Positions 7,836 to 40,637 of a stretch of DNA of 64,000 nucleotides are shown in pieces. The DNA is taken from the sequence record OQ703618.1. One strand, 5' to 3'. A program made the position numbers and the translations under genes. The notes below the pieces were generated by a model. It saw nothing but the letters and a program-made list of their open reading frames with translations. It ran no database searches and was not told the origin of the DNA. The DNA comes from Escherichia phage GADS24. How positions within the stretch are numbered: the stretch's first letter is position 1; each line of letters begins with the position of its first letter.

Positions 7836-7854
7836 TTTGTGTTCCTCGTGTTTT

Positions 7855-8349: not shown

Positions 8350-8365
8350 GATGTTATCCTCTTTT

Positions 8366-16749: not shown

Positions 16750-16976
16750 TAGTAAGTTTCCTTCCAATAAGTTGTACCATTTTCAGTGATTTCACGGAAG
16801 ATGCCATAGATAGGCATTTCGTCACCGAGTTTTTCGTAAACGTAAACCACTTCGGTGTAGCATAAAAATTCAGTCCAGCTTTTTTGTACAACAACTAAAT
16901 CAGGATTAAACAGAACATCTTCAAACTCATTGATGTTTGAATCAGTAGTTACGTTTTTAATGATTTGACGTTTCAT
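16749..16976 (-). CDS. Hypothetical protein (about 75 aa)
   Basis: Trimmed to MKRQIIKN with SD AAGAGGAGAA; early-promoter cassette immediately upstream. Confidence 0.45.
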
Positions 16977-16994
16977 AATATTCTCCTCTTGTTT

Positions 16995-17035
16995 TGATAG
17001 GTCTATAGTATCATAGACCATAGTTGTTGTACATC
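16995..17035 (-). promoter_or_regulatory. Early promoter/stem-loop cassette
   Basis: Minus strand TGTACA..GGTCTATG-ATACTA-TAGACCTATCAAAAC. Confidence 0.45.
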
Positions 17036-17558
17036 ATTTTAGCAAAATAAAATCAACTTGTTCTGCCAATGAACGTCTGAACATTAATTGACAACTTCCG
17101 AGGATGAAATCAGGTGCTTCATAGACCGCGATGTAGTATCCTTTAGCTTTCAAGAGTTCAACATCCACCTGGTCATCAAACCATGCATAAACCGCGTCAA
17201 CACTTTCAAATCCAAAATAGAACCCTTGAGCCCAATCTTCGCTCAATTCAAATGCGTGATCAATTCTATAGTATCTTAAGATATTTTGTTCAAGGAGTTT
17301 GTCTTCATTTACTGTAGGACGATTAGGGACATTATAGTTGTCGCCGTGATGGTAGAAGTTACCTGAGAGTATTCCATGCTTATCAAGGAACTCCCATGTT
17401 TCTTCAGAGTTGTCGGTGCCCGACCAACCGTATGGCGAGCGAGGTTCTTTATTCCAAGAGGTTTCCCAAATTCTGACGGCTTTACCGTCTTCGATAGCAA
17501 TTCCAGGTAATGATTCACGTTGAGTACAAAAACTACGTTCTACGCGGTAAACTAACAT
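17034..17558 (-). CDS. Hypothetical protein (174 aa)
   Basis: Minus-strand ORF preceded by an early-promoter cassette with SD. Confidence 0.55.
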   Translation of the reverse strand: MLVYRVERSFCTQRESLPGIAIEDGKAVRIWETSWNKEPRSPYGWSGTDNSEETWEFLDKHGILSGNFYHHGDNYNVPNRPTVNEDKLLEQNILRYYRIDHAFELSEDWAQGFYFGFESVDAVYAWFDDQVDVELLKAKGYYIAVYEAPDFILGSCQLMFRRSLAEQVDFILLK

Positions 17559-17571
17559 ATTATTCTCCTCT

Positions 17572-17612
17572 GGTTGATATGGTTATAATATCAAAACCAG
17601 AGGAGAAGTAAA
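17572..17612 (-). promoter_or_regulatory. Early promoter cassette
   Basis: Minus strand GTTTAC-17 nt-TATTAT upstream of SD AGAGGAGAA. Confidence 0.45.
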
Positions 17613-17617
17613 CAACT

Positions 17618-18046: not shown

Positions 18047-18544
18047 TTAAGCTTTACGAGGAGACACATAGCGAGTGATTTCAGATTCTTTAACAACTCG
18101 GAAGTCACCTAAGAATACGATATTGTATAACTTTTCACCATCTTCAACCCATTGGTCACTAATGAAGCCACACATAATATCAGTTTTGCTTGGATATCCG
18201 TATTCGTCGATGTAATCAAATTCTTTATCGGTTATAAATTCAACGCCTTTGCAAAGGGCCCATTTAAACTGTGTAGTAGGCTCAACGATATCGTTTGAAG
18301 CAAAGTGTGCAGGTGCAACTTCTTCGCTTGAAGCAAATTGGACTCGTATATGTTTTTCCAGGAATTTAGGACTTACGTAAGCATACTGGGCATCTTGTCC
18401 GCCAAAACTAGGAATGATTCGAACTTTAACTTCTTTAATACGTCCCATGCCATTTGTGCGAAGTCCGACAACTTCAACCAGACGACCTGCGGCTTTAGAC
18501 CGGGATGCAGTTGATACACGTTTAATTTCACCAATAGTAATCAT
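18047..18544 (-). CDS. Paralog family member B (about 165 aa from internal ATG)
   Basis: Same motifs as 17618-18037; trimmed to MITIGEIKRV with SD; own promoter cassette upstream. Confidence 0.55.
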   Translation of the reverse strand: MITIGEIKRVSTASRSKAAGRLVEVVGLRTNGMGRIKEVKVRIIPSFGGQDAQYAYVSPKFLEKHIRVQFASSEEVAPAHFASNDIVEPTTQFKWALCKGVEFITDKEFDYIDEYGYPSKTDIMCGFISDQWVEDGEKLYNIVFLGDFRVVKESEITRYVSPRKA

Positions 18545-18561
18545 ATTTTTTCTCTCTTTGT

Positions 18562-18604
18562 TTAAGTTGAATTCATTATACTCCATCCATCCTTGGATGT
18601 ACAA
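18562..18604 (-). promoter_or_regulatory. Early promoter cassette (CCAAGGATGG spacer family)
   Basis: Minus strand TTGTAC-ATCCAAGGATGGATGGAG-TATAAT. Confidence 0.5.
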
Positions 18605-18606
18605 CA

Positions 18607-19101
18607 TTAATTTAGAATATTAACTACTGCACTACGTGGAACCACACTAAAGTCACCGGCATGAACAACGTTCAGAAGTTCAACCCCATCTTCAATCCAC
18701 TGGTCAGTTACCCAGCCACTTACCGGTCCAGCGAATGGTCGACGAATTGAAACTGCTTTACACAACAAGTCTGTAGGCTCAATAGGCTTAATCAGAGTAC
18801 CGTACATACAAGCGATATCCATATCAAAGTGGAGACCATCTTTAACAGGTGCTTCTTCAATCAACAGTTCAAAGTCAGTGCTTGGAATGGCGGTAGTAGA
18901 AATTGTACCGTGTGAATTTTTAATTTCTAAGAATAACCAAGGGCCTTCAGCTTGTTTGATGAAGTTAACAATAGTGAAACTATTACCTTGAGTGGCACCT
19001 AAAATTTCACAAAACTTTTCATAAGCTCGCACTGAAGCACCGTACCAGTTGATTTGTTTTTCGTCTTTCAGGATGTAAGTAGCCGTAGTATTGATATTCA
19101 T
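18607..19101 (-). CDS. Paralog family member C (164 aa)
   Basis: C-terminal WIEDGVELLNVVHAGDFSVVP motif shared with members A and B; own promoter cassette. Confidence 0.55.
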   Translation of the reverse strand: MNINTTATYILKDEKQINWYGASVRAYEKFCEILGATQGNSFTIVNFIKQAEGPWLFLEIKNSHGTISTTAIPSTDFELLIEEAPVKDGLHFDMDIACMYGTLIKPIEPTDLLCKAVSIRRPFAGPVSGWVTDQWIEDGVELLNVVHAGDFSVVPRSAVVNILN

Positions 19102-19119
19102 AATGTTTTTCCTGTTTGG

Positions 19120-19162
19120 TTAAGATAGAAAGATTATACTCCAACCATCCTTGGTTGTAAAC
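19120..19162 (-). promoter_or_regulatory. Early promoter cassette (CCAAGGATGG spacer family)
   Basis: Minus strand GTTTAC-AACCAAGGATGGTTGGAG-TATAAT-CTTTCTATC. Confidence 0.55.
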
Positions 19163-21478: not shown

Positions 21479-22225
21479 TTAACCTTTAATCAGTTGGAAT
21501 AATGATGCGCTAAGTGGTAGGCCACGTTTCAATTTTAATTTACCAATGAAACCGATCTTTTCAAAACGTTGCAGACCTTGGATAACTTTATCATATGTAT
21601 CGAAAAGCGATTCAGCGTCAGTTAATTTAGTTTTAGTTTTCCAGTCAGAGCCTTTAAGAAGAACATTGAGTTTAGTAAGTTCATGGCCTTCTGCTTGATG
21701 TGAGCCATTAATGCGTGCTTTCAAAGCAACAATTCTAAGTTTAGATTCGTTAGATAAAGGTTGATTTTTCATCATGTTCGCCATATGCTTAACACGATTT
21801 TCACGTTTTGCTCGGATTTTTAAAATAGTACCATAAACCTTTTTAATTTGGGCCCATTTCTTCTCGTCGAGATTAAGTTTCTCTACTTTACGGGCAGAAG
21901 GATTAGCAATACGTCTTGCAACAGCGTCACGTTTCTCAATAAGTTCTTCTAATGTTAAATCAGAACGAGCCGTGTTATATTTTTTCTTAACTGGGATAAC
22001 ATTACCTTTAATGTAGCCTATATCATTATTAAAACGTTCTAAGGATAATTTCTCACCTTCAACAGAGTTATTGAAAGATTCACCTGAGTAAGCGCAGACC
22101 TTTTGATCAAGAATGTTTTTAAGGTAATTAAAGTCTAAGTTAAAATCCTTAGAGCGTCTCTTCGCAGAAGCTCTAGTGTGGTCAAGACGACGATTGATTT
22201 TGTTAATTTTATTATTTGATAACAT
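21479..22225 (-). CDS. srd: Srd-like protein (putative sigma-factor mimic), 248 aa
   Basis: Size and position between dda and modA as in T4; basic, helical composition. Confidence 0.6.
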   Translation of the reverse strand: MLSNNKINKINRRLDHTRASAKRRSKDFNLDFNYLKNILDQKVCAYSGESFNNSVEGEKLSLERFNNDIGYIKGNVIPVKKKYNTARSDLTLEELIEKRDAVARRIANPSARKVEKLNLDEKKWAQIKKVYGTILKIRAKRENRVKHMANMMKNQPLSNESKLRIVALKARINGSHQAEGHELTKLNVLLKGSDWKTKTKLTDAESLFDTYDKVIQGLQRFEKIGFIGKLKLKRGLPLSASLFQLIKG

Positions 22226-22263
22226 AATATTTTCCTCTGTCTTACGGACGTTAGGTCATTTAG

Positions 22264-22302
22264 CTGATAGGTCTATAATATCACGCCCTCAGGTAGTGTA
22301 CA
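22264..22302 (-). promoter_or_regulatory. Early promoter cassette for srd
   Basis: Minus strand GTGTAC-17 nt-TATTAT-AGACCTATCAGC. Confidence 0.5.
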
Positions 22303-22377: not shown

Positions 22378-22986
22378 TCAGTAACTGACAATAGACAGAT
22401 TCCAGATTGTATAACGTCCATCTTGAATAATAGAATCTACACGCAGTGTAGTCCCTATAGGGAGCATAAATTCACATTCGTCAGATATAAGTCTAGCATT
22501 AGACCGTCTTGTCGCTTCAGGGAAAGCTCCATTGAACTCGCAAGATGGTGCAGCCAGAATCATATTAAGCATATGTTCACGGAAGTTGAAAGCAAATGGT
22601 GCATCTTTGATGCAGAACATATTAAATGTTCCATAAAAATTATATGAAGCGAAGTTACGTGCTACACCAAACACCGGACTAAAGCTCATTACTCTATCAA
22701 ATTTAATAATACTACCAACGCCTTTATCGTCGAGTGTGGCCATAGTTTTCTTAGAGATTCCACGATACATTGTCTCAGGAACTGAAGAAGACCAATTTCT
22801 ACGAACGATTGAACTTAACTCCTGTTGAATACAGTCTGGCTTGTTTTCCATACACTGCCAAAGGATGCTTTGTTCATTATCGTTGAATTGACTATCAATT
22901 TCGTACTGCAATACATCTTGATATTCGGGGTTTTGAGCACGACGAACCATTTCTTCAATTTCACACTCGTTATACGGCATAAACAT
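22378..22986 (-). CDS. modA: ADP-ribosyltransferase ModA
   Basis: 202 aa; paralogous to the next ORF (shared QNILW, VPxxLYRG blocks); T4 order srd-modA-modB. Confidence 0.75.
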   Translation of the reverse strand: MFMPYNECEIEEMVRRAQNPEYQDVLQYEIDSQFNDNEQSILWQCMENKPDCIQQELSSIVRRNWSSSVPETMYRGISKKTMATLDDKGVGSIIKFDRVMSFSPVFGVARNFASYNFYGTFNMFCIKDAPFAFNFREHMLNMILAAPSCEFNGAFPEATRRSNARLISDECEFMLPIGTTLRVDSIIQDGRYTIWNLSIVSY

Positions 22987-23002
22987 TTTGGTTTCTCCTC
23001 TG

Positions 23003-23045
23003 GTTGATAGGACTATAGTATCATCGTCCTTGTTGTTTGTACACT
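23003..23045 (-). promoter_or_regulatory. Early promoter cassette for modA
   Basis: Minus strand GTGTAC..GGACGATG-ATACTA-TAGTCCTATCAACC. Confidence 0.5.
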
Positions 23046-23625
23046 AAAAATTCAACATTTTTAAATGAATGATTTTGTATAACCGAGATAAAGGGTCATA
23101 TTCTAAGTCTTCAATTTCCACAATCTCAAATCTAGAGATACCTGAGACCATGTACTCTTGTTCAGATTCAATCATATCTAGGACGTCAACACGTGTTTCT
23201 TCCATAACATGCTTAGGGTTCTTTCCGGCAAGTACAATGTTAACCATGTTTTGGTAGTAATCAAAAACGAATGGAGCATTCCTGAGACTAAGAATAGTGT
23301 ACGTCTGGTATTCCCAACTCCCGGAGAATTGACGAGCTGTACTGAAATCAGTTGTGAACGATGTTACTCGTCCAGGAGACCAATGGCATCCAACAGAAAG
23401 AAGTGAAAGACGTTCTACTTCTTCTGGAGTTACACCACGGTAGAGTTCTACTGGTACTGTAGAAGTCATATGCTTACGAACAAGATGGTCTAATTCATAG
23501 TGGAAATCCGGGTCTTCCTTAGAATCGGTGCAAGCCCAGAGAATGTTTTGTTCTTGGCGGGTGAATTTGCTATCAATCAGATTTGTTAGGTATTCACGTT
23601 CTTGAAGTTCAGATTGACATGTCAT
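23044..23625 (-). CDS. modB: ADP-ribosyltransferase ModB
   Basis: 193 aa; paralog of modA, same motif blocks. Confidence 0.75.
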   Translation of the reverse strand: MTCQSELQEREYLTNLIDSKFTRQEQNILWACTDSKEDPDFHYELDHLVRKHMTSTVPVELYRGVTPEEVERLSLLSVGCHWSPGRVTSFTTDFSTARQFSGSWEYQTYTILSLRNAPFVFDYYQNMVNIVLAGKNPKHVMEETRVDVLDMIESEQEYMVSGISRFEIVEIEDLEYDPLSRLYKIIHLKMLNF

Positions 23626-23647
23626 GATAGACCTCCATTTAAAGATA

Positions 23648-23690
23648 AGCCTATCATAACACGAGAGGAGGGAATGTAAACTACTTTTTA
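23648..23690 (-). promoter_or_regulatory. Early promoter for modB
   Basis: Minus strand GTTTAC-17 nt-TATGAT-AGGCTTATC. Confidence 0.45.
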
Positions 23691-23841
23691 AGCTTTCCTA
23701 CTAAAGGACCATCAGGGCCAGGTTGTTCTAACATGAATAAGGACGCTTTAAAAAGCAATGTCAACCCTTTCACCATTCGATACCATGTCTCAAAGTCTTT
23801 TTCCTTGATTTCTAGTAAGAATTTCTCTTTAAATTTCTCTT

Positions 23842-24033
23842 TCATTTCCATGGACTCCATGGTGGAGGGTCGTCATAATAAGAGGCAAGGTCTTTCAGGG
23901 CTTCAACAGGTAAACTAAAGCCGTGTCGTTGTATAATACTATCTAGTTCATCAACAAGTTCACTACGATGCACTTTAGGAGCCTCAACTTCAGGCTCGTC
24001 AAACATACTCATCAAGTCCATATTATTCACCAA
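23842..24033 (-). CDS. Hypothetical acidic protein (63 aa)
   Basis: Minus-strand ORF with ATGA overlap to upstream ORF. Confidence 0.4.
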   Translation of the reverse strand: MVNNMDLMSMFDEPEVEAPKVHRSELVDELDSIIQRHGFSLPVEALKDLASYYDDPPPWSPWK

Positions 24034-24487
24034 GATAAAAACTAGCAGGTTCAGAGAATGTTTCTAGTGCTACGCCTTTTGTCTTAAAAAATTTCCAAAT
24101 AGCTCGTTGCAAATGGGTTAAATCTGCTAATGATGTAATAAAGTATTTTTTGGCAAAATACTTATGGTCTCGCTTTTCAAATAAGTCTAAACGCTTTTCA
24201 GGATTCACATAAACTGCATTTTCCGTAGATTCATAACCTAAGTCCTTTATGCCTTCTTCAAGACTAAACGGAGAATTTTTAGAATGAGTAATAGCTCCAA
24301 CTCGCTCTACACGAATTTTGTAACCTTTAGGAATCTGCAATTTGCAGAATTCTTCTACGATATATTGCGGATTATTTAGACTTTTGTTAATGAGAATAGC
24401 TATTTCTAGTGGAGTCTTATCTTCTACTGGTATATGTTTAAACGACTTGGCTTCAAGCAAATACATTTTAAATAACATAGCATCCAT
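24023..24487 (-). CDS. Hypothetical protein (154 aa)
   Basis: Minus-strand ORF in the modB-soc hyperplastic region. Confidence 0.5.
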   Translation of the reverse strand: MDAMLFKMYLLEAKSFKHIPVEDKTPLEIAILINKSLNNPQYIVEEFCKLQIPKGYKIRVERVGAITHSKNSPFSLEEGIKDLGYESTENAVYVNPEKRLDLFEKRDHKYFAKKYFITSLADLTHLQRAIWKFFKTKGVALETFSEPASFYLGE

Positions 24488-24693
24488 TATAATTTCCTCG
24501 ATGGTTCACCCATATAAAGTTTTACAATACGTTCGCCTTCATCTTCGACGAGCTTCTCTTCGTGTTTCTGGAATTCTTTAGCCATATTCTCTTCAAGAAC
24601 ATCCAGCCAATCTTCTGGACCGACACCATCGTCCCAGCTTTTAAACCATTTAACTATCTTGTTCATTCGCAGCTCCCTGAGCTTGAACCACAA
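24487..24693 (-). CDS. Hypothetical protein (68 aa)
   Basis: Minus-strand ORF with overlapping stop/start. Confidence 0.45.
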   Translation of the reverse strand: MWFKLRELRMNKIVKWFKSWDDGVGPEDWLDVLEENMAKEFQKHEEKLVEDEGERIVKLYMGEPSRKL

Positions 24694-24911
24694 TCAGAAT
24701 AACTTGACCCGGAATCACCAGGCCAAGACGATACGTATGAATGATTATAACTTGAAGAGCTTGAAGCGTTAACCTGTTTTGTTTTTGGACGAATAACTTC
24801 TTCCATCATGCCGTCACCAATGTATTCCCAACTTTTTTCGTGTGTATCAGGAATAGGCATCATACCTTCGCCTGGTTTAACAGCAAACAACTTCTTCAGC
24901 ATCGTAAGCAT
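24663..24911 (-). CDS. Hypothetical Ser-rich protein (about 82 aa from internal ATG)
   Basis: Trimmed to MLTMLKK with SD GAGGAA. Confidence 0.4.
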   Translation of the reverse strand: MLTMLKKLFAVKPGEGMMPIPDTHEKSWEYIGDGMMEEVIRPKTKQVNASSSSSYNHSYVSSWPGDSGSSYSDCGSSSGSCE

Positions 24912-25104
24912 TAATTGTTCCTCGAACAAAACGAACACCACCATCGTCCCAACGAATTTCGGAATTAAATTTGACGTCTTCACCATCCATCATGAATGAG
25001 TGTACGACTACATCATCATAATATCCAAGACCATATTTCAACGAAACTTCTTGAGCAATCAAAGCACCTAATGTGTTATTAGGTTTAATCCAACGATTTA
25101 ACAT
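24877..25104 (-). CDS. Hypothetical protein (about 75 aa)
   Basis: Trimmed to MLNRWIKP with strong SD AAGAGGAGAA; promoter-like GTTTAC element upstream. Confidence 0.45.
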   Translation of the reverse strand: MLNRWIKPNNTLGALIAQEVSLKYGLGYYDDVVVHSFMMDGEDVKFNSEIRWDDGGVRFVRGTINAYDAEEVVCC

Positions 25105-25167
25105 ATTGTTCTCCTCTTGAGTAAGTAGGAATATCTTAACACAGTTTTTAGTGGTTGTAAACTGTAG

Positions 25168-25483: not shown

Positions 25484-25489
25484 ACTTAA

Positions 25490-26011
25490 TCAGTAACCAT
25501 TATCCTGGCGTTCAAAGTTGTGTTGGTTTTTCAAGTAGTAAAGTTTAAAGATTTCTTCAGCGGAAAGACCCAGACCTTGGAACATATTCAGAACAAAGTG
25601 GAGAATATCAATCATCTCAAATTTAATTTCAAGCTGGTCTTCAGGAGACAGTTCATCGATACGACGATTTCGATATTCAGCATGTTGTGCTTTCCATGGC
25701 TTCCATACAGAGCTAGCGGCTTTTTCACCATTGCTCATACCACCGAGTGAAGTCAGCAGTTCACGGAATTCATCATCAATATAATCTTTCTGATTACGCA
25801 GCCAATCAACAACATCACCGGCAGTGGCCAATTCATCAGGATGTTTGTTATGTTCAGGCTTGTCATTTGCCAGACGAACCTGTAAAGATTTCTGCATATC
25901 AAGCATTACCTGAAGTGGGTCTTTATCTTCGTGAATCAGAGCATTAAAATAAGCTTCTTCTGCTTTATCAACACCAGAAATAAGTTGTGAACATTCATTA
26001 AAGTGCGCCAT
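25490..26011 (-). CDS. 56: dCTPase/dUTPase gp56 (MazG-like dCTP pyrophosphatase)
   Basis: About 173 aa from ATG at 26011 (track start is TTG); position between soc and 61; SD AAAGGAAA. Confidence 0.8.
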   Translation of the reverse strand: MAHFNECSQLISGVDKAEEAYFNALIHEDKDPLQVMLDMQKSLQVRLANDKPEHNKHPDELATAGDVVDWLRNQKDYIDDEFRELLTSLGGMSNGEKAASSVWKPWKAQHAEYRNRRIDELSPEDQLEIKFEMIDILHFVLNMFQGLGLSAEEIFKLYYLKNQHNFERQDNGY

Positions 26012-28701: not shown

Positions 28702-28987
28702 CTGTGATTTCGGTTACGATATCTTTGTTATCGAAATTAGGGTCACAATACAAAACATAATTGTACTGCATGATACCGCCAGACTTAAGTTGTTCAACAA
28801 CTTTATTAACCATATTAGGACGGTCTCTTTTAGTGATGTTCATGATATCAGAGAAGATTTGTTGTTCAACATCTTCTTGATTTGCAGTCATTGACCACTC
28901 ACAGAGGTCTTTATCATAACCTGCCGTAACTGGAGCTGGTGCACATGATACTGCAAGTAAGATTGCTGCCAATGATAACTTTTTCAT
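28694..28987 (-). CDS. sp: Spackle-like periplasmic protein (superinfection exclusion / lysozyme inhibitor)
   Basis: 97 aa with N-terminal signal peptide MKKLSLAAILLAVSCAPAPVTA; same length and position as T4 Sp; own promoter. Confidence 0.65.
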   Translation of the reverse strand: MKKLSLAAILLAVSCAPAPVTAGYDKDLCEWSMTANQEDVEQQIFSDIMNITKRDRPNMVNKVVEQLKSGGIMQYNYVLYCDPNFDNKDIVTEITGE

Positions 28988-29002
28988 TTTAACTCCTTAG
29001 TT

Positions 29003-29046
29003 GATTTGATAGGACTACTATACTATAGTCCATCTATAATGTAAAC
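29003..29046 (-). promoter_or_regulatory. Early promoter/stem-loop cassette for sp
   Basis: Minus strand GTTTAC..GGACTATAG-TATAGT-AGTCCTATCAAATC. Confidence 0.5.
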
Positions 29047-29050
29047 AAGT

Positions 29051-29299
29051 TTATTCTTTTTCGCGAATAATAATTACTTGTTGAGGCTGCTGAGCAGATT
29101 TCTTTTCGGCAACGATAGACCAAATTAAAGTTCCAATCCAACCAACCATCGTCCAGTTAAAGAGTAAAGATACAAAGAAGATTGCTGTTGTGCTTTTTGT
29201 GCCACGAATAAGTGCGATTACCCAAGGCAACATGTAAATGATGATTGAACCAATACCTGCGATTAAAACCGCTACTGAACTAGCTACGAATAATTCCAT
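29051..29299 (-). CDS. Small integral membrane protein (82 aa, 2-3 TM helices)
   Basis: Hydrophobic segments VASSVAVLIAGIGSIIIYMLPWVIALI and AIFFVSLLFNWTMVGWIGTLIWSIV. Confidence 0.5.
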   Translation of the reverse strand: MELFVASSVAVLIAGIGSIIIYMLPWVIALIRGTKSTTAIFFVSLLFNWTMVGWIGTLIWSIVAEKKSAQQPQQVIIIREKE

Positions 29300-29360
29300 G
29301 TTAATTTCCTCTTGATTTGTTATGTTTATAATATCTTATTTTAACTTTGGTGTAAACCAA

Positions 29361-29729
29361 TTAGTTAAATTTGTTTAAACGTTCAATACACTGGACGTAG
29401 TTATTTGCGATTTGTTTCTGGGTAGGCTCTTTACCAGTTGTTTCAACATAGCGAATGAATGCGATTTCAGTAGCCTGTAGACAATGTTCTTTAACGCGTT
29501 GTTCTTTTGACATAGCTACAGTATCAGAATCACGATAACGTTGAGCATGTGCATCAGCTTGAATCATTCGATTACCTACAGTAACCGGGTCTTCCACTTC
29601 AACTTTAGGTTGGTCATACTGTTTAACATTTGGATTGTAAATCAGTTGGCCAACGTTATTAGGGATAAAGCCATGGGCACCACATCCGGTTAATCCAAAT
29701 ACCATTGCTAAAGCGATTAATTTTTTCAT
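29361..29729 (-). CDS. Putative lipoprotein (122 aa)
   Basis: Signal peptide with lipobox MKKLIALAMVFGLTGC; early promoter upstream. Confidence 0.55.
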   Translation of the reverse strand: MKKLIALAMVFGLTGCGAHGFIPNNVGQLIYNPNVKQYDQPKVEVEDPVTVGNRMIQADAHAQRYRDSDTVAMSKEQRVKEHCLQATEIAFIRYVETTGKEPTQKQIANNYVQCIERLNKFN

Positions 29730-29745
29730 TTCAATTTCCTCTGTG

Positions 29746-29787
29746 GTTGATAGAAAGATAGTAACACAGTATGCGATGCTTGTAAAC
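29746..29787 (-). promoter_or_regulatory. Early promoter for the lipoprotein gene
   Basis: Minus strand GTTTAC-17 nt-TGTTAC-TATCTTTCTATC. Confidence 0.4.
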
Positions 29788-30195: not shown

Positions 30196-30509
30196 ATTTC
30201 CTCGCAAAATGCCCATTCAGCGTGATAAACTGTAGCACCTTTAGTATTATTCATTTGAACTACGTCTACCGGAGAAATTACTCGATAGAGACGTGGTTCA
30301 CCTCCATAAGAGCGTGCTGCTCGTCCTGCATAAATCTTTGCTAAACCAATATCTTCAGTAAAGAATACACGATCCAGGTTTTTCTTACGTCCAGTTTCAG
30401 ACAGAACTCCTGTTTCCTCAGGAGGACAAAGCATGTTTTCGATGTTAGCTGAACTACTTGAACCGTGATAAAAAATCTTAAATTCTGCTTTACAATCGAT
30501 GGTTTTCAT
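30192..30509 (-). CDS. Hypothetical protein (105 aa)
   Basis: Minus-strand ORF with ATGA overlap to dmd; promoter cassette upstream. Confidence 0.5.
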   Translation of the reverse strand: MKTIDCKAEFKIFYHGSSSSANIENMLCPPEETGVLSETGRKKNLDRVFFTEDIGLAKIYAGRAARSYGGEPRLYRVISPVDVVQMNNTKGATVYHAEWAFCEEI

Positions 30510-30523
30510 TTTGTTCTCCAGTA

Positions 30524-30564
30524 GTTGATAAGTCTATAATAACACAACTACTGGAGAAGTAAAC
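30524..30564 (-). promoter_or_regulatory. Early promoter cassette
   Basis: Minus strand GTTTAC-17 nt-TATTAT-AGACTTATCAAC. Confidence 0.45.
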
Positions 30565-30939
30565 TTAAAAACGTAATTTAGATACATCTACGTTGATTTC
30601 GCTTTGGTTTGCGTCGTATGCAATTAAACGAACCGCTTTAGATGGGTCATTCAATGCATAGAAATGATGGAACATTGCTCGAACGATATCACCATTTACG
30701 AGTTCTACCTGGATAGGAGAACCTTTTTCGAGTTGGAAATGTTCATAAGCTTTGATGGTTCGCAGATAATCAAGTTTTTGATTTCCGGCTCCAACAATTT
30801 GTACGATACGTTTGCCCATGTTTTCCATACGAGATACAATAGTTTTAGGAGCAAGAATAACGTAGGTTGCCAGTGGAGAAACTACTTCAACAGTTGTGTT
30901 TTCGGTGATTGCAGTAAAAATTGCTTGAGACATATTCAT
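30565..30939 (-). CDS. Hypothetical protein (124 aa)
   Basis: Minus-strand ORF with SD AAGAGGAAAAC. Confidence 0.5.
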   Translation of the reverse strand: MNMSQAIFTAITENTTVEVVSPLATYVILAPKTIVSRMENMGKRIVQIVGAGNQKLDYLRTIKAYEHFQLEKGSPIQVELVNGDIVRAMFHHFYALNDPSKAVRLIAYDANQSEINVDVSKLRF

Positions 30940-30964
30940 AATGTTTTCCTCTTGGTTGGTGTAA

Positions 30965-30998
30965 GTACATCATATCATGCCTAGAGGAAGATGTAAAC
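30965..30998 (-). promoter_or_regulatory. Early promoter-like element
   Basis: Minus strand GTTTAC-17 nt-TATGAT upstream of SD AAGAGGAAAAC. Confidence 0.4.
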
Positions 30999-31001
30999 CC
31001 C

Positions 31002-31028
31002 GAAAGGAGACCGAAGTCTCCTTTTTAT
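31002..31028 (-). terminator. Hairpin terminator downstream of gene 41
   Basis: GGAGAC-UUCG-GUCUCC followed by TTTCGGGGTTT (and TTTTT on the opposite strand). Confidence 0.4.
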
Positions 31029-34085: not shown

Positions 34086-34634
34086 TTAACGAGCCCATTT
34101 GATAATTTCTGTAATCAAATTATTACGTTCGCTTGCATTAAATCCTATAACTTTGTTAGCACCATCATGATTAAGTAATTGATATGTTTGGATTTTGTTA
34201 TGAATTGCAAACTCTTCAAAATGTGAAATGACTGTATTAAAACCGAATGAAGACAAAGTAATAAGGTCGTCTTCAAAACTTTCAGTCATTTCGTTACGTG
34301 TTAAAATAATTGTGAACACATCATGGTTTTGGCAAAGACGAACATAATCCTGTTCATAAACATCAAGAACCGAGTCCGCATCTTGTCGAATACGTCCATA
34401 AACCCAGTTACTAATATATCCACGGTCTAACAGATAAATCTTAGTAGGGTCTAAATAATTCAACATCGTTTCGAAACAGCCAACTTCATTTCGAGACTTA
34501 ACATCAAAACGTCCATCAACTGTTCGTTTAGGGAAATCAATTTTTACATATCTTTCACTAATTTCCATTATGTCATTAATGAAAGTTGTTTTACCAGCAT
34601 TATCCGGGCCATCTACTAAAATAATTTTAGCCAT
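34086..34634 (-). CDS. P-loop nucleotide/nucleoside kinase-like protein
   Basis: 182 aa; Walker A VDGPDNAGKTT and LLDRGYIS (DR motif) as in dNMP/thymidylate-type kinases; first gene of the modification cluster. Confidence 0.6.
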   Translation of the reverse strand: MAKIILVDGPDNAGKTTFINDIMEISERYVKIDFPKRTVDGRFDVKSRNEVGCFETMLNYLDPTKIYLLDRGYISNWVYGRIRQDADSVLDVYEQDYVRLCQNHDVFTIILTRNEMTESFEDDLITLSSFGFNTVISHFEEFAIHNKIQTYQLLNHDGANKVIGFNASERNNLITEIIKWAR

Positions 34635-34635
34635 T

Positions 34636-35535
34636 TTATTCCTCGATTACGACATCTTCGTATTTAGGTATATTATACGGTGAAGAAATTAAAGCATTAA
34701 AGTAGATGAACTCGCCAAGACCTGGATGGAATACTTCTTCAGGATTTTCGAAATATTGAATCTTCGGCCGTCCTTTAAGAATTTGATAGTACTCAGTTTT
34801 AGTTGGTTTAAAAATTCGAATCAGCGCTTCTTCAGGATACTTATTTCTATCGAAGCTATTATTTGGATCGGTTACATAAAGCGGTTGACCTAATTGAATT
34901 GCACATTCAACCACTTGTTCAAAACGATAGCACGGGTCACTAATTCGAAATGGATGAAAAATACCATCTAGATGAATAGGAGCCAAATCACCTACAAAAC
35001 GCTGCATGATGGAAGGACGTATAACTTTCTGGGTTACGATAATCTTATTACCATCTGCACCAGCGTTAACCAGCACTTCCTTTTGACGTTCATTCAACAC
35101 AGTAGTTTGAAGTGAACGATTAACCGACAACATGTCGGTTTTTAAGAATTCGTCAATATAAAAACGTGGTTTATTAGGGTCTGCAGTGATATTGAAATTG
35201 AATTCTACATCAAAAGCTCCGTCATATCCAGTGATATCTGTTATTAGAAAATCACAATCATAATAAGCAATTAATGAATCAACCACAAATTCATTTTCAG
35301 ACCAGAAATATTTACGAGTGTTATACGCGTTATCTTTATACCATAACGGAACAAACTTAAATTCTGGGAAAAGACGTTCACATTCTTTAATATCAGATGC
35401 ATTACGTGGATATGTAATAACATCACCCGGATTAGCACGGTGCAAATGAAGTTGGAAGTTGCCATCCTTAAGGATAGCATACTCTCCAGTTTCATAAGAC
35501 CGCATACTCAAGATAGGTACGCGGAAAATAGCCAT
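34636..35535 (-). CDS. Hypothetical protein (299 aa) in the modification cluster; possible transferase
   Basis: Immediately downstream of gene 42 with ATGA overlap; Asp-rich YYDCDF segment; no family recognised. Confidence 0.55.
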   Translation of the reverse strand: MAIFRVPILSMRSYETGEYAILKDGNFQLHLHRANPGDVITYPRNASDIKECERLFPEFKFVPLWYKDNAYNTRKYFWSENEFVVDSLIAYYDCDFLITDITGYDGAFDVEFNFNITADPNKPRFYIDEFLKTDMLSVNRSLQTTVLNERQKEVLVNAGADGNKIIVTQKVIRPSIMQRFVGDLAPIHLDGIFHPFRISDPCYRFEQVVECAIQLGQPLYVTDPNNSFDRNKYPEEALIRIFKPTKTEYYQILKGRPKIQYFENPEEVFHPGLGEFIYFNALISSPYNIPKYEDVVIEE

Positions 35536-36251
35536 TAGTCAAGGAATCCTTTAACATAATCAAAATCACGTTCAAACACATGGGCACTTACCATGGTATG
35601 AGTATAATCACCAACTTCTACACCACATTCGTTAGCGATATAATGAAGTAATTTTCCTTGGAGATAAAAATCCAACTGCATAACAACAGCACAGTTCTGA
35701 GAACGCATATGGCAGTGGGTATAAAGCTTACCATCACGAATATAATAAGTCACTGAGTCAGTACATGGATATTCAAGCGTTTCGTCCGAATCAAGCAAAG
35801 CCTGATCAGAACTTTCTAGAATTTGGAACACAACTCTTCGAGAGTTAGGTTTCTCTTTAAGTTCTTTGAGAAGAGCTGGTAACTGGGCCGCAATTCGTGG
35901 ACCATAGAAAGTGTTGAAGTTTGCAGGCAAAGCATCTGATTTCGGTTTAGAAATAAATTTAGCAACGTTAGGATATGCCTTAAATGCTTCTTCTGCATCA
36001 GTTCCGCCAGAAATCATAAATTTCCAGAAATCTTCGGCATATTCATAAGAGATGCGGTTAATACGTGGGTCGGTCATTTTGAATGATGATGGAGTGTCAA
36101 CAACTACTGTCATAGACCCAATTTCATTACAACGTCCAATACGAGAATCAGTTACGAATTCCGGGTTTTCTAAAATCTCACGATTGACTGCTTTAAATGC
36201 GGATTGAAAATCTGCGGCTTTAATATATTTCATTGTGTTATGTTTTCCCAT
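35535..36251 (-). CDS. 42: dCMP hydroxymethylase (thymidylate synthase family), gene 42
   Basis: 238 aa; TS-family core with nucleophile Cys in YPCTDS, RS dyad 20-21 residues later and Asp at the position of TS Asn177 (cytosine specificity). Confidence 0.75.
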   Translation of the reverse strand: MGKHNTMKYIKAADFQSAFKAVNREILENPEFVTDSRIGRCNEIGSMTVVVDTPSSFKMTDPRINRISYEYAEDFWKFMISGGTDAEEAFKAYPNVAKFISKPKSDALPANFNTFYGPRIAAQLPALLKELKEKPNSRRVVFQILESSDQALLDSDETLEYPCTDSVTYYIRDGKLYTHCHMRSQNCAVVMQLDFYLQGKLLHYIANECGVEVGDYTHTMVSAHVFERDFDYVKGFLD

Positions 36252-36292
36252 GTTTACCTCAATACAGTTATTATATACTCAATTCATAAAGC

Positions 36293-36532
36293 TTATTTGA
36301 ATTTCTTAGCGATGTTGATATAACGTAGAGCTTCGGCATCGATACTTCTAAGGACACTATGAAGGAATGCGTCGGCATAGTATTCTAGTTGAACAGGTTC
36401 TTTAATCGCTTTAGCCGCTTTAGTTTCAAACAGGCCCATAAGGGCCTTTTTAAGAATTTGTTCGTTGCTGGTAATTTTAATAGTCAAAATCTCTTCATTA
36501 AGTTGGTGGTTAAAAGTTTTTCTAGAAATCAT
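36293..36532 (-). CDS. Hypothetical protein (79 aa)
   Basis: Small ORF between the U32-like gene and gene 42. Confidence 0.45.
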   Translation of the reverse strand: MISRKTFNHQLNEEILTIKITSNEQILKKALMGLFETKAAKAIKEPVQLEYYADAFLHSVLRSIDAEALRYINIAKKFK

Positions 36533-37689
36533 TCCGGGTACCTCAAAGCGTCGTCAGAGTTAGTTATATCAATAATAGATATAGAATTTTCTGATAACCC
36601 ATTTTTAGATAACTGACGTTTATAATATCTTTCACAATATGTACACGTCGTCCCGCAGATTTCATTAGCACAATCGAAATCTGGATGTCTGAACCACCTT
36701 TTTTCTAAAAAGCCGTCTAACAAAGAGGTTTCAATATTTACCGTATGTGAAAACTCGGTCTCATTTTCAAGAGTGAAAATGGTCTCTAAAGGCTTCCACA
36801 GTTCTAACAAATTACCTTCAAACTTTTCAGAAGCGTATGCTTCAAGAACTTTCAAAATGTAGTCTGTGCTACCTGTACGTCCTGAAACTTTGAATTGAGT
36901 GATACCAATATCATTATAAAGTTTCAAATCTTGTGGACGAACAAAACGAGTTCTCAACCAGTTAAATGGGTCTGTATCACGAGCTTTAATACAGTGCTGC
37001 ATAGGATATCCATTTAAGGATTTAGCATCATCAGCTGTAACATCAGTACTATGGAAAATATAGCAAGAGTCACGATAGCTACAATGTGTTGTATACCCTT
37101 TACCAGCATTAGAACAGAACTCATTTACAAGAACTTCAAATATTATATTGTTCTTATTGCAAAACTCTGCTGCACGCTTCAGGAAAGAAACTGAACGGTT
37201 CTTATGAATTCCACAGCAGACCTTTTTGATATTATACTGGTCATGTAAGTATTTGATTTGAGTTACAGCATCGACATGTAAAATTGTTGAAACTTCAATC
37301 TCAATGTCTTTATTGACTTCACGAACAATTTCCATAACAACAGGGTTAGCGATAGTAATACGCCATACGCCTATTGACCAAAGATACTGAACATAATCCT
37401 GAATAGCTTTCTTCTTCCACTCAACTAGTTCTCTTTTTGAACCGGGATTTATCGTGTTGAGTGTATAGTTAAAGCAAATACCTAATTCGTTACAACGTTT
37501 AACGTAATCTTCTAACATCTTTTTGTCAACGTCAGGAAGCCTAAAATCAGGTCTGGCTGCTACAAAAGCCATTTCTCTTGTAGAGCCGTATACTTCGTTT
37601 ATCAAGCTATTAGGATAAGTTTTATTGAGCTCTACGATTTTATCAAGAAGAGCTAAATCAAAATTCGTTCCGATTTTAAAAGTATTCAT
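36529..37689 (-). CDS. Cys-rich TIM-barrel-like enzyme, peptidase-U32-like (putative Fe-S protein), about 386 aa
   Basis: N-terminal pattern resembling U32 proteins (..EVYGS..ARPDF..ICFNYTLNT), central EVLVNEFCSNAGKGYTTHCSY, C-terminal CGTTCTYC (CxxxCxxC); trimmed to first ATG. Confidence 0.55.
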   Translation of the reverse strand: MNTFKIGTNFDLALLDKIVELNKTYPNSLINEVYGSTREMAFVAARPDFRLPDVDKKMLEDYVKRCNELGICFNYTLNTINPGSKRELVEWKKKAIQDYVQYLWSIGVWRITIANPVVMEIVREVNKDIEIEVSTILHVDAVTQIKYLHDQYNIKKVCCGIHKNRSVSFLKRAAEFCNKNNIIFEVLVNEFCSNAGKGYTTHCSYRDSCYIFHSTDVTADDAKSLNGYPMQHCIKARDTDPFNWLRTRFVRPQDLKLYNDIGITQFKVSGRTGSTDYILKVLEAYASEKFEGNLLELWKPLETIFTLENETEFSHTVNIETSLLDGFLEKRWFRHPDFDCANEICGTTCTYCERYYKRQLSKNGLSENSISIIDITNSDDALRYPE

Positions 37690-37748
37690 TTTTTTTTTGC
37701 ATCTCACGTTAATTGACGCGATGGTTTTTGCAGGTCTTACTTAAATTA

Positions 37749-38150
37749 TTATAGATTCGGTTTATATGATTTAAATGTTTCGAATTCGCCTTTATTCATA
37801 AGAGCTTTGAATTCGTCGGGACGCATAGCTTTGTCGTCGATAATCCAATCATATACTGGTTTATGTGTTAGCAAATTATGGTACTTCAAGCCAATGTTTG
37901 CCAAGTTCTGAATAAGACTTGGGAGAATGTCAATTGCTATACGACCAGGACCTACTGACTTCATACCGCGAGCAGTGTAAAGCGTTATGGTATGCCCTGC
38001 ATCATACAGGGCATTAATGGCAGACACCATTTCGACGTCTGGTTTGAAGTTCACGTAATCACGATTGTTATTCCACTCTGTTATACAATCATCGACATCA
38101 AAACAAAGATTAAGCATGTTTTCTACACGGTGCATTAGATTCGTTCCCAT
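37749..38150 (-). CDS. HAD-superfamily phosphatase (KdsC-like sugar-phosphate phosphatase)
   Basis: 133 aa; motif I FDVDDCIT (DxDx[T/V]) near the N-terminus; overlaps the upstream gene. Confidence 0.65.
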   Translation of the reverse strand: MGTNLMHRVENMLNLCFDVDDCITEWNNNRDYVNFKPDVEMVSAINALYDAGHTITLYTARGMKSVGPGRIAIDILPSLIQNLANIGLKYHNLLTHKPVYDWIIDDKAMRPDEFKALMNKGEFETFKSYKPNL

Positions 38151-39820
38151 TGATGAGTGATATCGCCACCGATTGGACGATAGGAAACACCAGTTTCTTT
38201 ATCAGTTAGTACCCATTTACCAGGATTTTTTGTAATCAGAGTAGCCGTTACAGGTTCTGCCATGTCATAACTAATAGAGCCGTCCTGAAGTACACGGCCC
38301 ATGTTACGTAATTGCTTAGTCAGAAGTTCCATACCTTTATAATATGCGGCTACCGCTTTAAGTGGATTATTCTTGAAATAACCACCTAATGCAATCCAGA
38401 TAATTGCTACAGCCAAATGATGATACTCGTTAAATGAACTCATCTTTCCATATTTGTAAACTAATGGATTGATGTTAATAGTCACATTACAAGTTGTTTC
38501 ATCAATAGTAAACTGTCCCCAGGTCGGATTAGCGTTGAATTCATCATAACCTGAAACAGCATAAAGCACTTTAGCTTCATCGTACAATTTTGGCCCGTAA
38601 ATCTTGGTTTCGCCAAAATATCCACGAGGGTCGATAAACTTGACTTCGCCGTTATCAGTAATCATAGTATTACTGAAGTTCGGGTCACCGTGAATAACAG
38701 AGTACTGTCCCTGAGAACGGTTATGATAACGAATAAGGTGTTCTAAAGCTTGTTTCAGCATTGGCTTCAGACGCCCAATCTTAGTGTAGTTCACATGTGT
38801 GATTTTACCAAATGAATCAATCAATGGTTGAATACTTTCACAACGATCAATAACTTTCGTATAGAATTCTTTAGTGAAATCACGACGAACAGTTTCAGGA
38901 CTTACAAAATAAGTGTCTGTGCTGAATTTCAGTGCATCTAAAATTGCATCAACAATTTGTGGACGAGCAAGACTCGATTTAGATTTAATATATTCAAATG
39001 CCGGCTTACCTTTAATGCGTTCCATTTCAAAGTTATTTTCATTAACAGAAACTAACTGAGGAACTGAATCTGATTTCACTTTAAGATACCATGAAATCTC
39101 ATCTTTCTGAAGAGCTCGTCCCTGTTCGGTTAATGCGAATTTAGTTACAGTTTCTTCACCAATTTCAACTGCATTAAAACTACGATTAAGTTCACGAACT
39201 TCATGAGCTTTTTCAAGTTTAGGCATATCACCTAAATCAATTAGATTCATAAGCTCTGATTTATTGAATGCGCCGCTGTAAAGGAATTCTACGAAATCAC
39301 GTCCTTTGCAGTATTCATGAATTTCCTCATCAGTAGAACCCATATAGAATTCCCAGTCTTTGAATTGATAAATTCCTACAACATTACCACCTGTTGAACC
39401 TACGTTAGTGATATTTTCACCGTCGAAATTATATCGACATTCGTCACCCTTAACATAGATTGCGTTAACATTCCAAGACCATGAACCAAAATCAGGAATA
39501 ATATCACACCAGTTAACAATTACATTATGGCCGTCTAAATCTTTGTGTAATTTAGCAAGAGCATAAGCGGAACCATATGCTTCATCAACTGTACGAATAG
39601 TCACATTGAACCCTTCTTGCTCACAATAAGCTCGAACAGTTTCAGCAAATTTTGAATGAACTACTACAATAATTTCATCTGCGCCAAGGTCAGAATAAAT
39701 TGTATACAAATTGCTCAGAATAGTGTCTTGTTTATAGTTAACAAGCACCTTAGGAATATGATGCGTTATTGGATACAAACGAGTTGCCAGTCCAGCACCA
39801 AGAATAACAGCTTTTTTCAT
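38135..39820 (-). CDS. Bifunctional sugar-1-phosphate nucleotidyltransferase (N-terminal) / sugar kinase (C-terminal)
   Basis: 561 aa; N-terminal ILGAGLATRLYPIT..PKVLV (RmlA/GlmU-type G-x-G-x-R); C-terminal HGDPNFSNTMI..FIDPRGYFG resembling APH/choline-kinase catalytic loop. Confidence 0.7.
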   Translation of the reverse strand: MKKAVILGAGLATRLYPITHHIPKVLVNYKQDTILSNLYTIYSDLGADEIIVVVHSKFAETVRAYCEQEGFNVTIRTVDEAYGSAYALAKLHKDLDGHNVIVNWCDIIPDFGSWSWNVNAIYVKGDECRYNFDGENITNVGSTGGNVVGIYQFKDWEFYMGSTDEEIHEYCKGRDFVEFLYSGAFNKSELMNLIDLGDMPKLEKAHEVRELNRSFNAVEIGEETVTKFALTEQGRALQKDEISWYLKVKSDSVPQLVSVNENNFEMERIKGKPAFEYIKSKSSLARPQIVDAILDALKFSTDTYFVSPETVRRDFTKEFYTKVIDRCESIQPLIDSFGKITHVNYTKIGRLKPMLKQALEHLIRYHNRSQGQYSVIHGDPNFSNTMITDNGEVKFIDPRGYFGETKIYGPKLYDEAKVLYAVSGYDEFNANPTWGQFTIDETTCNVTININPLVYKYGKMSSFNEYHHLAVAIIWIALGGYFKNNPLKAVAAYYKGMELLTKQLRNMGRVLQDGSISYDMAEPVTATLITKNPGKWVLTDKETGVSYRPIGGDITHQWERI

Positions 39821-39861
39821 GTTGTGGTCCTCATTGGTAAGTAGGAGTATTGTACACTATT

Positions 39862-40005
39862 CTAGTTAAAGCATTCATACTTTGCTTGTAGTCCAATCAT
39901 AATCCATCCAATTACAAGTGTTGGAATCATTACTGGAGCCGTTAAGCTCCAGTAGATAGTCATGACAAGCATCAATAGTAAAAGTCCTATTGTTATTGCT
40001 TTCAT
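39862..40005 (-). CDS. Small hydrophobic peptide (47 aa)
   Basis: ATG overlaps the stop of the isomerase gene (ATGA); translation MKAITIGLLLLMLVMTIYWSLTAPVMIPTLVIGWIMIGL; below ORF-track cutoff. Confidence 0.3.
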   Translation of the reverse strand: MKAITIGLLLLMLVMTIYWSLTAPVMIPTLVIGWIMIGLQAKYECFN

Positions 40006-40637
40006 TGTTCGCCTCGTAACATGGCACCTAGTGCACCACCAGGGTGGAACTTAAGGAAGTCATTAGAGGTAAATCCACGTTCAGACGAAAGGTTGATAGC
40101 GAACGTATCGATAAGCGCTAACAACAATGTAGTAGACATTGTCGGAGCTAAAGAGTTCTCGTCAACTTCTACCGCGATGCCTGTACAGAAAGAGTAATCA
40201 AAAAGGGCTTCATTTTCTTGCGGAATGTCAGGGTTACAATGTAACAGAATCTGTTTAACCTGAGGACGAATCATACGAAGATGTTTAGCAACACCTATCA
40301 TTTCTTCGGTTTTACCAGAACGACTAATATGAATCAACACATCATTAGGCGCAATGAATCCTGCATCACCGTGAGAATAATGCCCAGTGTTCAAGTACAT
40401 ACTCGGGATACCGAGTGAAGCAAATGTCTCAGAAGCTTTAGTTGCAATATTAGCATTCTTACCAACACCTGTAATAATTACTCGGCTTTCATAATTACTA
40501 AGTCCTGGGCGTCGAAGAGTTTCTAGAATAGCATTATAACGAGCAGGGTTTTGACTAATTACTTTGGCCATAGTAGCCAAAGAAGAAGCTTGTTTTACGA
40601 TTGCGTCAATAGCGATAGTAATAGGAGTAGTTTTCAT
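40002..40637 (-). CDS. SIS-domain sugar-phosphate isomerase (KdsD/GutQ-like arabinose-5-phosphate isomerase)
   Basis: 211 aa; SIS motifs ITGVGKNANIA and SRSGKTEE, C-terminal FHPGGALG as in API enzymes. Confidence 0.75.
   Translation of the reverse strand: MKTTPITIAIDAIVKQASSLATMAKVISQNPARYNAILETLRRPGLSNYESRVIITGVGKNANIATKASETFASLGIPSMYLNTGHYSHGDAGFIAPNDVLIHISRSGKTEEMIGVAKHLRMIRPQVKQILLHCNPDIPQENEALFDYSFCTGIAVEVDENSLAPTMSTTLLLALIDTFAINLSSERGFTSNDFLKFHPGGALGAMLRGEQ

Follow-up and report, generated by a model that had tools for sequence, protein, structure and literature searches.

The 64,000-nucleotide stretch of Escherichia phage GADS24 analyzed here (OQ703618.1; hereafter the window) carries on its minus strand many copies of one cassette, the flagged copy lying upstream of the spackle gene sp. 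We read these sites as sigma-70-dependent immediate-early promoter cassettes of an RB69-like T4-type phage, in which half of a recurrent sequence element, the box AGWCCTATCAA (W being A or T), forms one arm of a hairpin; this reading, made from the DNA sequence, has in our estimate a probability of about 0.6. Judged by their anatomy, a predicted sigma-70 promoter, a stem-loop, and a Shine-Dalgarno (SD) sequence with start codon, the cassettes are of the promoter-early stem-loop (PeSL) kind already established in the phage pairs RB49/phi1, PST/T4, and nt-1/KVP40 (Arbiol et al., 2010, PMC2839356; Comeau et al., 2014, PMC4122927), and they match the published description (PMC2839356), as an earlier sequence-only reading of this DNA had suggested.

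The box is strongly enriched in the window and is concentrated at promoter-like sites. Allowing at most one mismatch, there are 14 matches where shuffled sequence leads one to expect 2.31 ± 1.48 (none of 100 shuffles reached 14), and 13 of them are on the minus strand, the gene strand. Ten lie on that strand in short intergenic regions with a -10-like hexamer directly 5', and at nine of these GTTTAC, TGTACA, or GTGTAC follows 16–18 bp further 5' of the -10; at the tenth, upstream of gene 55 (51594-51604), the inverted repeat described below is present and a MotA-box-like TGCTTTA replaces the -35. The remaining four (33609 on the plus strand, 34783, 40943, and 49494) are in coding sequence, have no promoter features, and are about as many as chance would supply, so the motif is not equally frequent inside genes. 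All nine sites listed in the sequence-only reading are real (boxes ending at 5284, 7853, 8365, 16994, 22264, 23004, 29006, 30525, and 63341), and its figure of at least 12 holds when four degenerate boxes are counted (CTTTCTATCAA at 29757, AACCATATCAA at 17584, ATCCATATCAA at 2795, and CTTCCTATCGT at 52807) but not with the 10 proper intergenic boxes alone. Its statement that the cassettes mostly precede small hypothetical open reading frames (ORFs) has to be revised: six of the 10 box cassettes stand before motA, cef, srd, modA, sp, and 55, and the other four before conserved hypotheticals. In the complete RB69 genome, 23 of 25 box matches are on the early-gene strand and about 20 lie behind a -35/-10 pair; a promoter scan of that genome, blind to the downstream region, found 38 strict cassettes on the minus (early) strand and just 2, both weak, on the opposite (plus) strand.

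A scan of the window that ignored everything 3' of the -10 found about 25 cassettes (Table 1) with a common plan of about 60 nt: an A/T-rich UP-like tract (upstream A+T 55–90%), a -35 hexamer (GTTTAC, the palindromic TGTACA, or GTGTAC), a spacer of 16–18 bp ending in TGn, a -10 of the form TAnnnT, a 6-nt discriminator, the start site, an unstructured leader of about 20 nt, an SD, and ATG. The distance from the -10 to the ATG is near-constant, 26–31 nt, at most cassettes. Counting the usual 7 nt from the -10, transcription is predicted to start on the A of ATCAA, which puts AGWCCT at -6 to -1 and fits the preference for C at -3 to -1 published with earlier predictions of RB69 early promoters (PMC1524935). 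A literature search for genome-wide transcription start site maps of T4 or RB69 returned nothing usable. The consensus context for NAD capping at start sites does not seem to fit the -3 to +4 sequence found here. A candidate promoter at 59733 was dropped because nrdC.3 and nrdC.2 overlap at that point and the sequence upstream of it is GC-rich.

The recurrent sequence had been proposed as a single conserved element, AG(A/T)CCTATCAA; it proves to be composite. Its first part, AGWCC(T), is a 3' hairpin arm that covaries with the 5' arm GGWCT... inside the -35/-10 spacer, the extended -10 lies in the loop, and ATCAA is the predicted start region. The inverted repeat, in the form GGWCTAT..ATAGWCC that had been noticed or in a shifted one, is present at seven of the 10 box sites (63351, 51604, 29016, 17004, 8375, 7863, and, weakly, 23014) and absent at motA (5294) and srd (22274). 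Boxes with AGACC go with GGTCT and those with AGTCC go with GGACT or GGATT, and variant boxes in RB69 have matching 5' arms (AGCCC with GGGCT and CCTGTACC with GGTACAGG; in longer form, AGCCCTATCAA with GATAGGGCTA and AGACCTGTACC with GGTACAGG). Stems surround the -10 in some cassettes that lack the box as well (GAGAGC/GCTCTC in those of ndd and 55.2, and one of 12 bp in that of ORF075c), and overall a stem of at least 6 bp brackets the -10 in 13 of the 26 cassettes of the window. This complementarity between spacer and downstream sequence is promoter-specific: the observed value was reached in none of 2000 permutations for 23 promoters of the window, in none of 5000 for 38 promoters of RB69 (z about -8), and in 106 of 5000 for 8 promoters in the first 50 kb of T4. 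Pooling all fetched loci gave 146 unique cassettes, and in 49 of them a stem of at least 7 bp brackets the -10, compared with 20.5 ± 3.7 in mismatched pairings.

The end of the 3' arm is bimodal in position, falling on the start site or on the SD, and in 88 non-redundant cassettes from 54 loci the start-site class (z -10.6, 0 of 5000 permutations) and the SD class (z -2.9, 10 of 5000) are both enriched. Cassettes of the SD class have stems of 7–14 bp between spacer and SD region, as at ORF040c (14 bp), motB.2 (13 bp), ORF041c (7 bp), and 55.6 in the window and at regB and another gene in RB69. The two classes of RNA that could cover a cassette fold very differently. Read-through RNA, taken from the -35 to the ATG, has z of -2.5 or below against shuffles at 11 cassettes, and transcripts of the same 11 from the predicted +1 are essentially unstructured (0 to -2.6 kcal/mol). 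For ORF040c the values are -21.1 kcal/mol (z -5.4) for read-through RNA and 0 kcal/mol for its own transcript, and for motB.2 they are -23.9 kcal/mol (z -7.4) and 0; the folds of ORF075c (-18.6 kcal/mol, z -4.9) and ORF270c (-13.2 kcal/mol, z -2.9) are less stable. At the 30535, 17584, 30968, and 53935 cassettes the SD lies in a paired segment of the read-through fold, and the cassette's own transcript is unstructured. A search of the window against Rfam found no family at gathering score.

Orthologous upstream regions, gathered via the downstream proteins, show the spacer-downstream complementarity covarying in five Tevenvirinae genera. The stem at the sp promoter is GGACTA/TAGTCC in Mosigvirus, GGGATAAT/ATTATCCC in Gaprivervirus (VR25 group), and AAGGCCAT/ATGGCCTT in a third lineage, and no stem is found upstream of sp in T4-like phages. 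Upstream of 55.2, about 10 different stems occur across about 30 genomes. In 12 of these sequences with an early-type or extended -10, both sides change at five of nine pairs, one pair running through GC, CG, AU, and UA; 83% of cells are paired, compared with at most 53% when partner columns are slid, and none of 500 shuffles reaches the score. In eight orthologues of the MotA-box type (Kagamiyamavirus and others) the paired fraction of cells is 93.5%, and two of the pairs are compensatory. One-sided changes in the 55.2 alignments are all G.U, but the cells concerned are not independent of one another. At the homologous position (window 52501-52536), T4 (L003) and the T4-like loci L017 and L019-L023 have no promoter and carry a GGGC-TTCG-GCCC terminator followed by T5, so that a hairpin is kept at this junction whatever the promoter class; the leader downstream of it, GGATAATAAAAT, is conserved in T4-like and other genomes alike.

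If a cassette's own transcript begins no further upstream than the 3' arm, as predicted, its leader would be unstructured, and only RNA that was initiated at an upstream promoter and reads through the cassette could form the hairpin. Hairpins of the start-site class would then probably attenuate or pause read-through or protect the 3' end of the upstream message, roles that are less clear than that of the SD class, in which read-through RNA would be untranslatable and the gene expressed only while its own early promoter fires. A general Tevenvirinae "transcript-origin filter", in which an early gene is translated, or its message handled properly, only on RNA from its own promoter and read-through RNA has a hairpin that masks the SD or else marks the junction, is a tentative extension that we think has the odds against it.

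Several observations weigh against a hairpin that is maintained for action in RNA. Taken alone, the flagged sp hairpin is weak (-11.5 kcal/mol, z -1.92), and the significance of the hairpins comes from the ensemble and the orthologues; roughly one cassette in two lacks a significant stem (motA, srd, imm, imm.1, mrh.2, motB, and nrdC.3); paralogous cassettes are non-independent observations; and for this phage the start site and read-through are predictions. An unbiased tally of G.T (9) and A.C (4) gives no significant indication of selection on the sense RNA (p = 0.27), so the stems could matter at the DNA level. Templated mutation in quasi-palindromes can also yield apparent compensation without selection, and such events do occur in these sequences: in the ORF075c cassette at 52807 (hairpin 52797-52830) the loop, which includes the -10 TATTAT, is inverted in L016 and L018, relatives with proteins at least 97% identical (ACATGTTATTAT in the window, ATAATAACATGA in L018), which presumably inactivates or weakens the promoter. 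The start codon of ORF075c in L016 is GTG and not ATG. The tally and the inverted loop both favor an account in which the inverted repeats are template-switched quasi-palindromes or recombination hot spots without any role in RNA, cassette shuffling being their sole effect, and so do the mapping of PeSL mini-circle crossovers between the -10 and the SD/ATG and the position of the ORF075c module between two cassettes. We consider this account improbable, since the 3' arm ends at a functional landmark, start site or SD, the leaders of own transcripts are kept structure-free, the one-sided changes at 55.2 take the G.U form, and most indels relative to close relatives are away from cassettes.

It also seems doubtful to us that the box is purely an element of promoter strength, serving host RNA polymerase, possibly Alt-modified, as discriminator, core-recognition, or initial-transcribed sequence, with the inverted repeat incidental. 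Such a role would explain why the box keeps a fixed distance from the -10, why it is fully conserved at motA and srd despite the missing 5' arm, and why (T)ATCAA is common to genera with differing stems, and it agrees with the C at -3 to -1 noted in three T4-like phages (PMC1524935) and with the unexplained extra early-promoter consensus in T4 reviews; it would leave unexplained that the W of AGWCC always matches the spacer arm, that variant boxes come with compensating spacer changes, and that orthologous promoters keep the stem while changing its sequence, the complementarity being specific to each promoter. The hairpins could alternatively be intrinsic terminators of the upstream gene, forming the composite promoter-terminators first proposed for PeSLs, given that one RB49 PeSL stem-loop equalled rrnB T1 termination in a reporter (PMC2839356) and that the T4-like terminator sits exactly at the position of the 55.2 hairpin. 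The stems in the window are A/U-rich and only 6–8 bp long, however, none of the bracket stems is followed by a T-run (0–4 T in the next 8 nt), and the true terminators of the window, at the 30968 and 25132 cassettes, stand upstream of the -35; we rejected the canonical terminator reading for want of T-runs and regard a terminating function as an unlikely explanation of the stems. Shut-off of T4 early promoters is incompletely understood (PMC3014915) and the palindromes overlap the -10, which might point to an operator where a dimeric DNA-binding protein, of the phage or the host, shuts these promoters off. That explanation is very improbable: arm sequences differ among promoters of one genome, loops range from 6 to 23 nt, and half of the promoters have no palindrome, and a single repressor operator was rejected because such variation does not suit one sequence-specific binder.

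Our preferred reading, a promoter start region joined to a hairpin arm, places these cassettes close to several known systems. With PeSLs, which are defined with five positional subclasses of stem-loop, one of them overlapping the -10 (PMC2839356), they share the AT-rich tract, the strong sigma-70-like promoter, the stem-loop possibly overlapping the -10, the SD, and the ATG, as well as the many repeats, the occurrence of the same cassette before unrelated genes, and some gene-content differences flanked by cassettes; the site upstream of gene 55 is a counterpart of the middle-promoter version (PmSL). They differ in that their stems are A/U-rich, 6–14 bp long, and without a T-run, whereas RB49 stems are built of G-runs and C-runs, in that many precede named conserved genes (motA, asiA, modA, modB, srd, cef, sp, imm, and ndd) and not ORFans, and in that the published T4/PST stem-loops lie upstream of the promoter. 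Neither the SD-pairing class nor covariation evidence is mentioned in the PeSL papers (PMC2839356; PMC4122927), and we regard both as modestly new. T4-type early promoters, of which 57 were predicted in RB69 (Nolan et al., 2006, PMC1524935; see also Hinton, 2010, PMC2988021), have the same UP-like A tract, GTTTAC -35, TGn, -10, C-rich -3 to -1 region, and early-gene strand, but neither the inverted repeat nor the AGWCCTATCAA box in its extended form appears in the papers on them. The genes e, soc, 49, and I-TevI of T4 have a hairpin that sequesters the ribosome-binding site and contains an internal promoter (PMC3014915), so that, as in the SD class, the SD is paired in a long read-through RNA and the promoter inside the hairpin gives a shorter translatable one; the internal promoter there is late or middle/late and delays expression, whereas an early promoter in that position would restrict expression to the earliest minutes. 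Intrinsic terminators are likewise intergenic RNA stem-loops, and T4 has a true one at the homologous 55.2 site; the stems described here are weaker, have no U-run, and overlap the -10 instead of lying 5' of the promoter.

The sequence-only reading had also noted that PeSL cassettes are proposed to drive modular gene shuffling, and for this a few examples exist here, without statistical support. Near-identical cassettes precede unrelated genes, and the gene served differs between phages: AAACTCTTGGGACCAGAGTATAATGGTCC is upstream of motB in T4 and of 55.2 in Dhakavirus, a close variant lies upstream of ndd and 55.2 here, and ORF040c here shares its cassette CTCCAGTAG...AGACYTATCAACTACTGGAG with nrdC.8 of Dhakavirus VR5. 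Such repeats could be substrates for homologous recombination, as proposed for PeSLs, whose published mini-circle crossovers fall in the segment, between the -10 and the SD/ATG, that holds the box here. ORF075c is absent from one T4-like locus, where the replaced segment spans cassette to cassette; imm.1 and imm, each with its own early-promoter cassette, lie between 61.4 and sp here (29051-29729) and in RB69 and between 43 and 42 in T4 (26373-27013 of L003); and a deletion of 61.4 ends at a cassette. Among indels relative to ten close relatives, at least four of about 10 are away from cassettes, numbers too small and too mixed for a test, and the association remains anecdotal.

Table 1. Promoter cassettes of the window, all on the minus strand. 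Arms are the pairing segments in the spacer (5') and downstream (3').
Gene served	Interval	-35	-10	Box or equivalent	5' arm	3' arm	ATG	Remarks
sp (spackle)	28985-29046	GTTTAC 29046-29041	TATAGT 29022-29017	AGTCCTATCAA 29016-29006	GGACTA 29031-29026	TAGTCC 29017-29012	28987	Flagged site; 18-bp spacer; predicted +1 A 29010; SD AAGGAG 28998-28993
nrdC.8	63324-63380	63380-63375	63357-63352	63351-63341	AGGTCTAT 63373-63366	ATAGACCT 63353-63346	63324	
55	51575-51640	TGCTTTA 51640-51634	-10-like 51610-51605	AGACCTATGAA 51604-51594	ATAGGTCT 51631-51624	AGACCTAT 51604-51597	51575	Middle-promoter-like
ORF040c	30509-30564	30564-30559	30541-30536	AGACTTATCAA 30535-30525	TTCTCCAGTAGTTG 30558-30545	CAACTACTGGAGAA 30527-30514	30509	SD class; 14-bp spacer/SD stem replaces inverted repeat
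modA	22986-23043	TGTACA 23043-23038	23020-23015	AGTCCTATCAA 23014-23004	AGGAC	GTCCT	22986	Weak 5-bp stem
srd	22225-22302	22302-22297	22280-22275	AGACCTATCAG 22274-22264			22225	Long leader; no convincing bracket stem
cef	16976-17033	TGTACA 17033-17028	17010-17005	AGACCTATCAA 17004-16994	GGTCTAT 17019-17013	ATAGACC 17006-17000	16976	
ORF270c	8349-8404	8404-8399	8381-8376	AGTCCTATCTA 8375-8365	TAGGACTA 8392-8385	TAGTCCTA 8376-8369	8349	
ndd.1	7835-7893	7893-7888	7869-7864	AGTCCTATCAA 7863-7853	TAGGATTA 7880-7873	TAGTCCTA 7864-7857	7835	One G.U pair
motA	5255-5323	5323-5318	5300-5295	AGACCTATCAA 5294-5284			5255	No bracket stem
motB.2	17558-17613	17613-17608	17590-17585	AACCATATCAA, degenerate	TTCTCCTCTGGTT 17607-17595	AACCAGAGGAGAA 17575-17563	17558	SD class; 13-bp stem
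ORF075c	52776-52836	TGTACA 52836-52831	TATTAT 52813-52808	CTTCCTATCGT	ACGATAGGAAGA 52830-52819	TCTTCCTATCGT 52808-52797	52776	12-bp stem
55.2	52470-52536	52536-52531	TATAAT 52513-52508		TGAGAGC 52524-52518	GCTCTCA 52507-52501	52470	Covariation site
ndd	7558-7631	TGTACA 7631-7626	7608-7603		TGAGAGCA 7619-7612	TGCTCTCA 7603-7596	7558	Paralogue of 55.2 cassette
ORF041c	30939-31025	30998-30993	30974-30969		TTCCTCT 30989-30983	AGAGGAA 30952-30946	30939	SD class; 7-bp spacer/SD stem
55.6	53907-53964	53964-53959	TAAGAT 53941-53936		CCTCaATAG	CTATaGAGG at SD	53907	SD class
imm.1	within 29299-29787	29787-29782	29763-29758	CTTTCTATCAA			29729	No significant stem
imm	within 29299-29787	29357-29352	29333-29328				29299	No significant stem
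motB.1	within 18544-19162	19162-19157					19101	
motB	within 18544-19162	18603-18598					18544	
modB	within 23625-25162	23681-23676	23658-23653	AGGCTTATCTT			23625	
mrh.2	within 23625-25162	25162-25157					25104	T-run terminator 5' of -35
asiA	2761-2825	2825-2820	TACTAT 2801-2796	ATCCATATCAA 2795-2785			2761	

Some cassettes have further features in the window or in relatives. The RB69 modA cassette has the box ACCTTTATCAA and no stem; in the Dhakavirus orthologue of the nrdC.8 cassette the spacer pairs with the SD instead; and the T4 orthologue of motB.2 has the arms TCCTCGGT/ACTGAGGA. The -35 of the ORF041c cassette is preceded by a canonical terminator, GGAGAC-TTCG-GTCTCC with TTT after it. 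The early promoter of RB69 regB (61305-61365, L052) has a spacer-SD stem of 11–14 bp, TTCTCCTCTAG/CTAGAGGAGAA. RegB cleaves GGAG in SD sequences, its own included. At the Gaprivervirus orthologue of 55.6 (L006, about 4770-4800; also L029, L031, and L033), a GGGG...CCCC hairpin with a T-run behind it encloses the -35 TGTACA, so that terminator and promoter use the same bases. In RB69 (43873-43912, L002) the RefSeq start of gene 55.6 (73 aa) is upstream of the predicted promoter start site, and the cassette model, like T4, backs a shorter 60-aa form. A spacer family, CCAAGGAYGGWTGGAG-TATAAT, is common to the cassettes of motB.1, motB, nrdC.3 (60685-60743), and nrdC.5 (61683-61738), with the CCAAGGAYGGWTGGAG spacer falling within 60714-60743, 61710-61738, 19133-19162, and 18575-18603; at the T4 site orthologous to 60713 the frame reads GCCAAGGATGGCTCGGAGTATAAATC, a late-promoter-like TATAAAT replacing the -10.

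The window is 98–99% identical to Escherichia phages JN02, HX01, ST0, and mar005P1 (genus Mosigvirus, RB69 group) and covers an early/middle region running through asiA, motA, ndd, rIIB, rIIA to 39, motB, dda, modA/B, 61, sp, imm, 41, uvsX, 43, 45-47 to 55, nrdD, and the nrdC genes, nearly all of them on the minus strand and named here from the annotation of relatives. Between uvsX and gene 43 (about 34086-40637), an RB69-type cluster takes the place of the T4 b-gt/42 region; its genes are annotated in RB69 as thymidylate-kinase-like, dCMP-hydroxymethylase-like, peptidase, phosphoheptose isomerase, sugar nucleotidyltransferase-like, and arabinose-5-phosphate isomerase, and presumably form a DNA sugar-modification pathway. 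The soc-56 intergenic region (25484-25527), a junction without a promoter cassette, is variable, with an additional 192 bp in RB69, about 410 bp in L004, and the homing endonuclease gene segF in T4. In IMG/VR genome 2974739009 (L005, L050), 439 bp of modB (window 23168-23607) are missing, one end of the deletion being 18 nt into the gene and adjoining the modB promoter cassette.

The repeated motif of RB69-like phages would thus be explained as a promoter start region fused to one hairpin arm, an arrangement that brings Mosigvirus and four or more further Tevenvirinae genera under the PeSL concept, and the covariation indicates that promoter-overlapping hairpins are maintained. The resulting cassette model (-35, spacer arm, -10, arm, ATCAA, SD, ATG) may permit precise annotation of promoters and start codons in phages that are candidates for therapy. 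The SD class suggests a testable route by which motB.2, RB69 regB, and several ORFs of unknown function would be translated only from their own early transcripts, an idea that bears on the incompletely understood shut-off of early expression. If a transcript-origin filter does operate, rapid shut-off of immediate-early genes would be hard-wired once the early promoters fall silent, and gene modules would be insulated and could move with their regulation intact.

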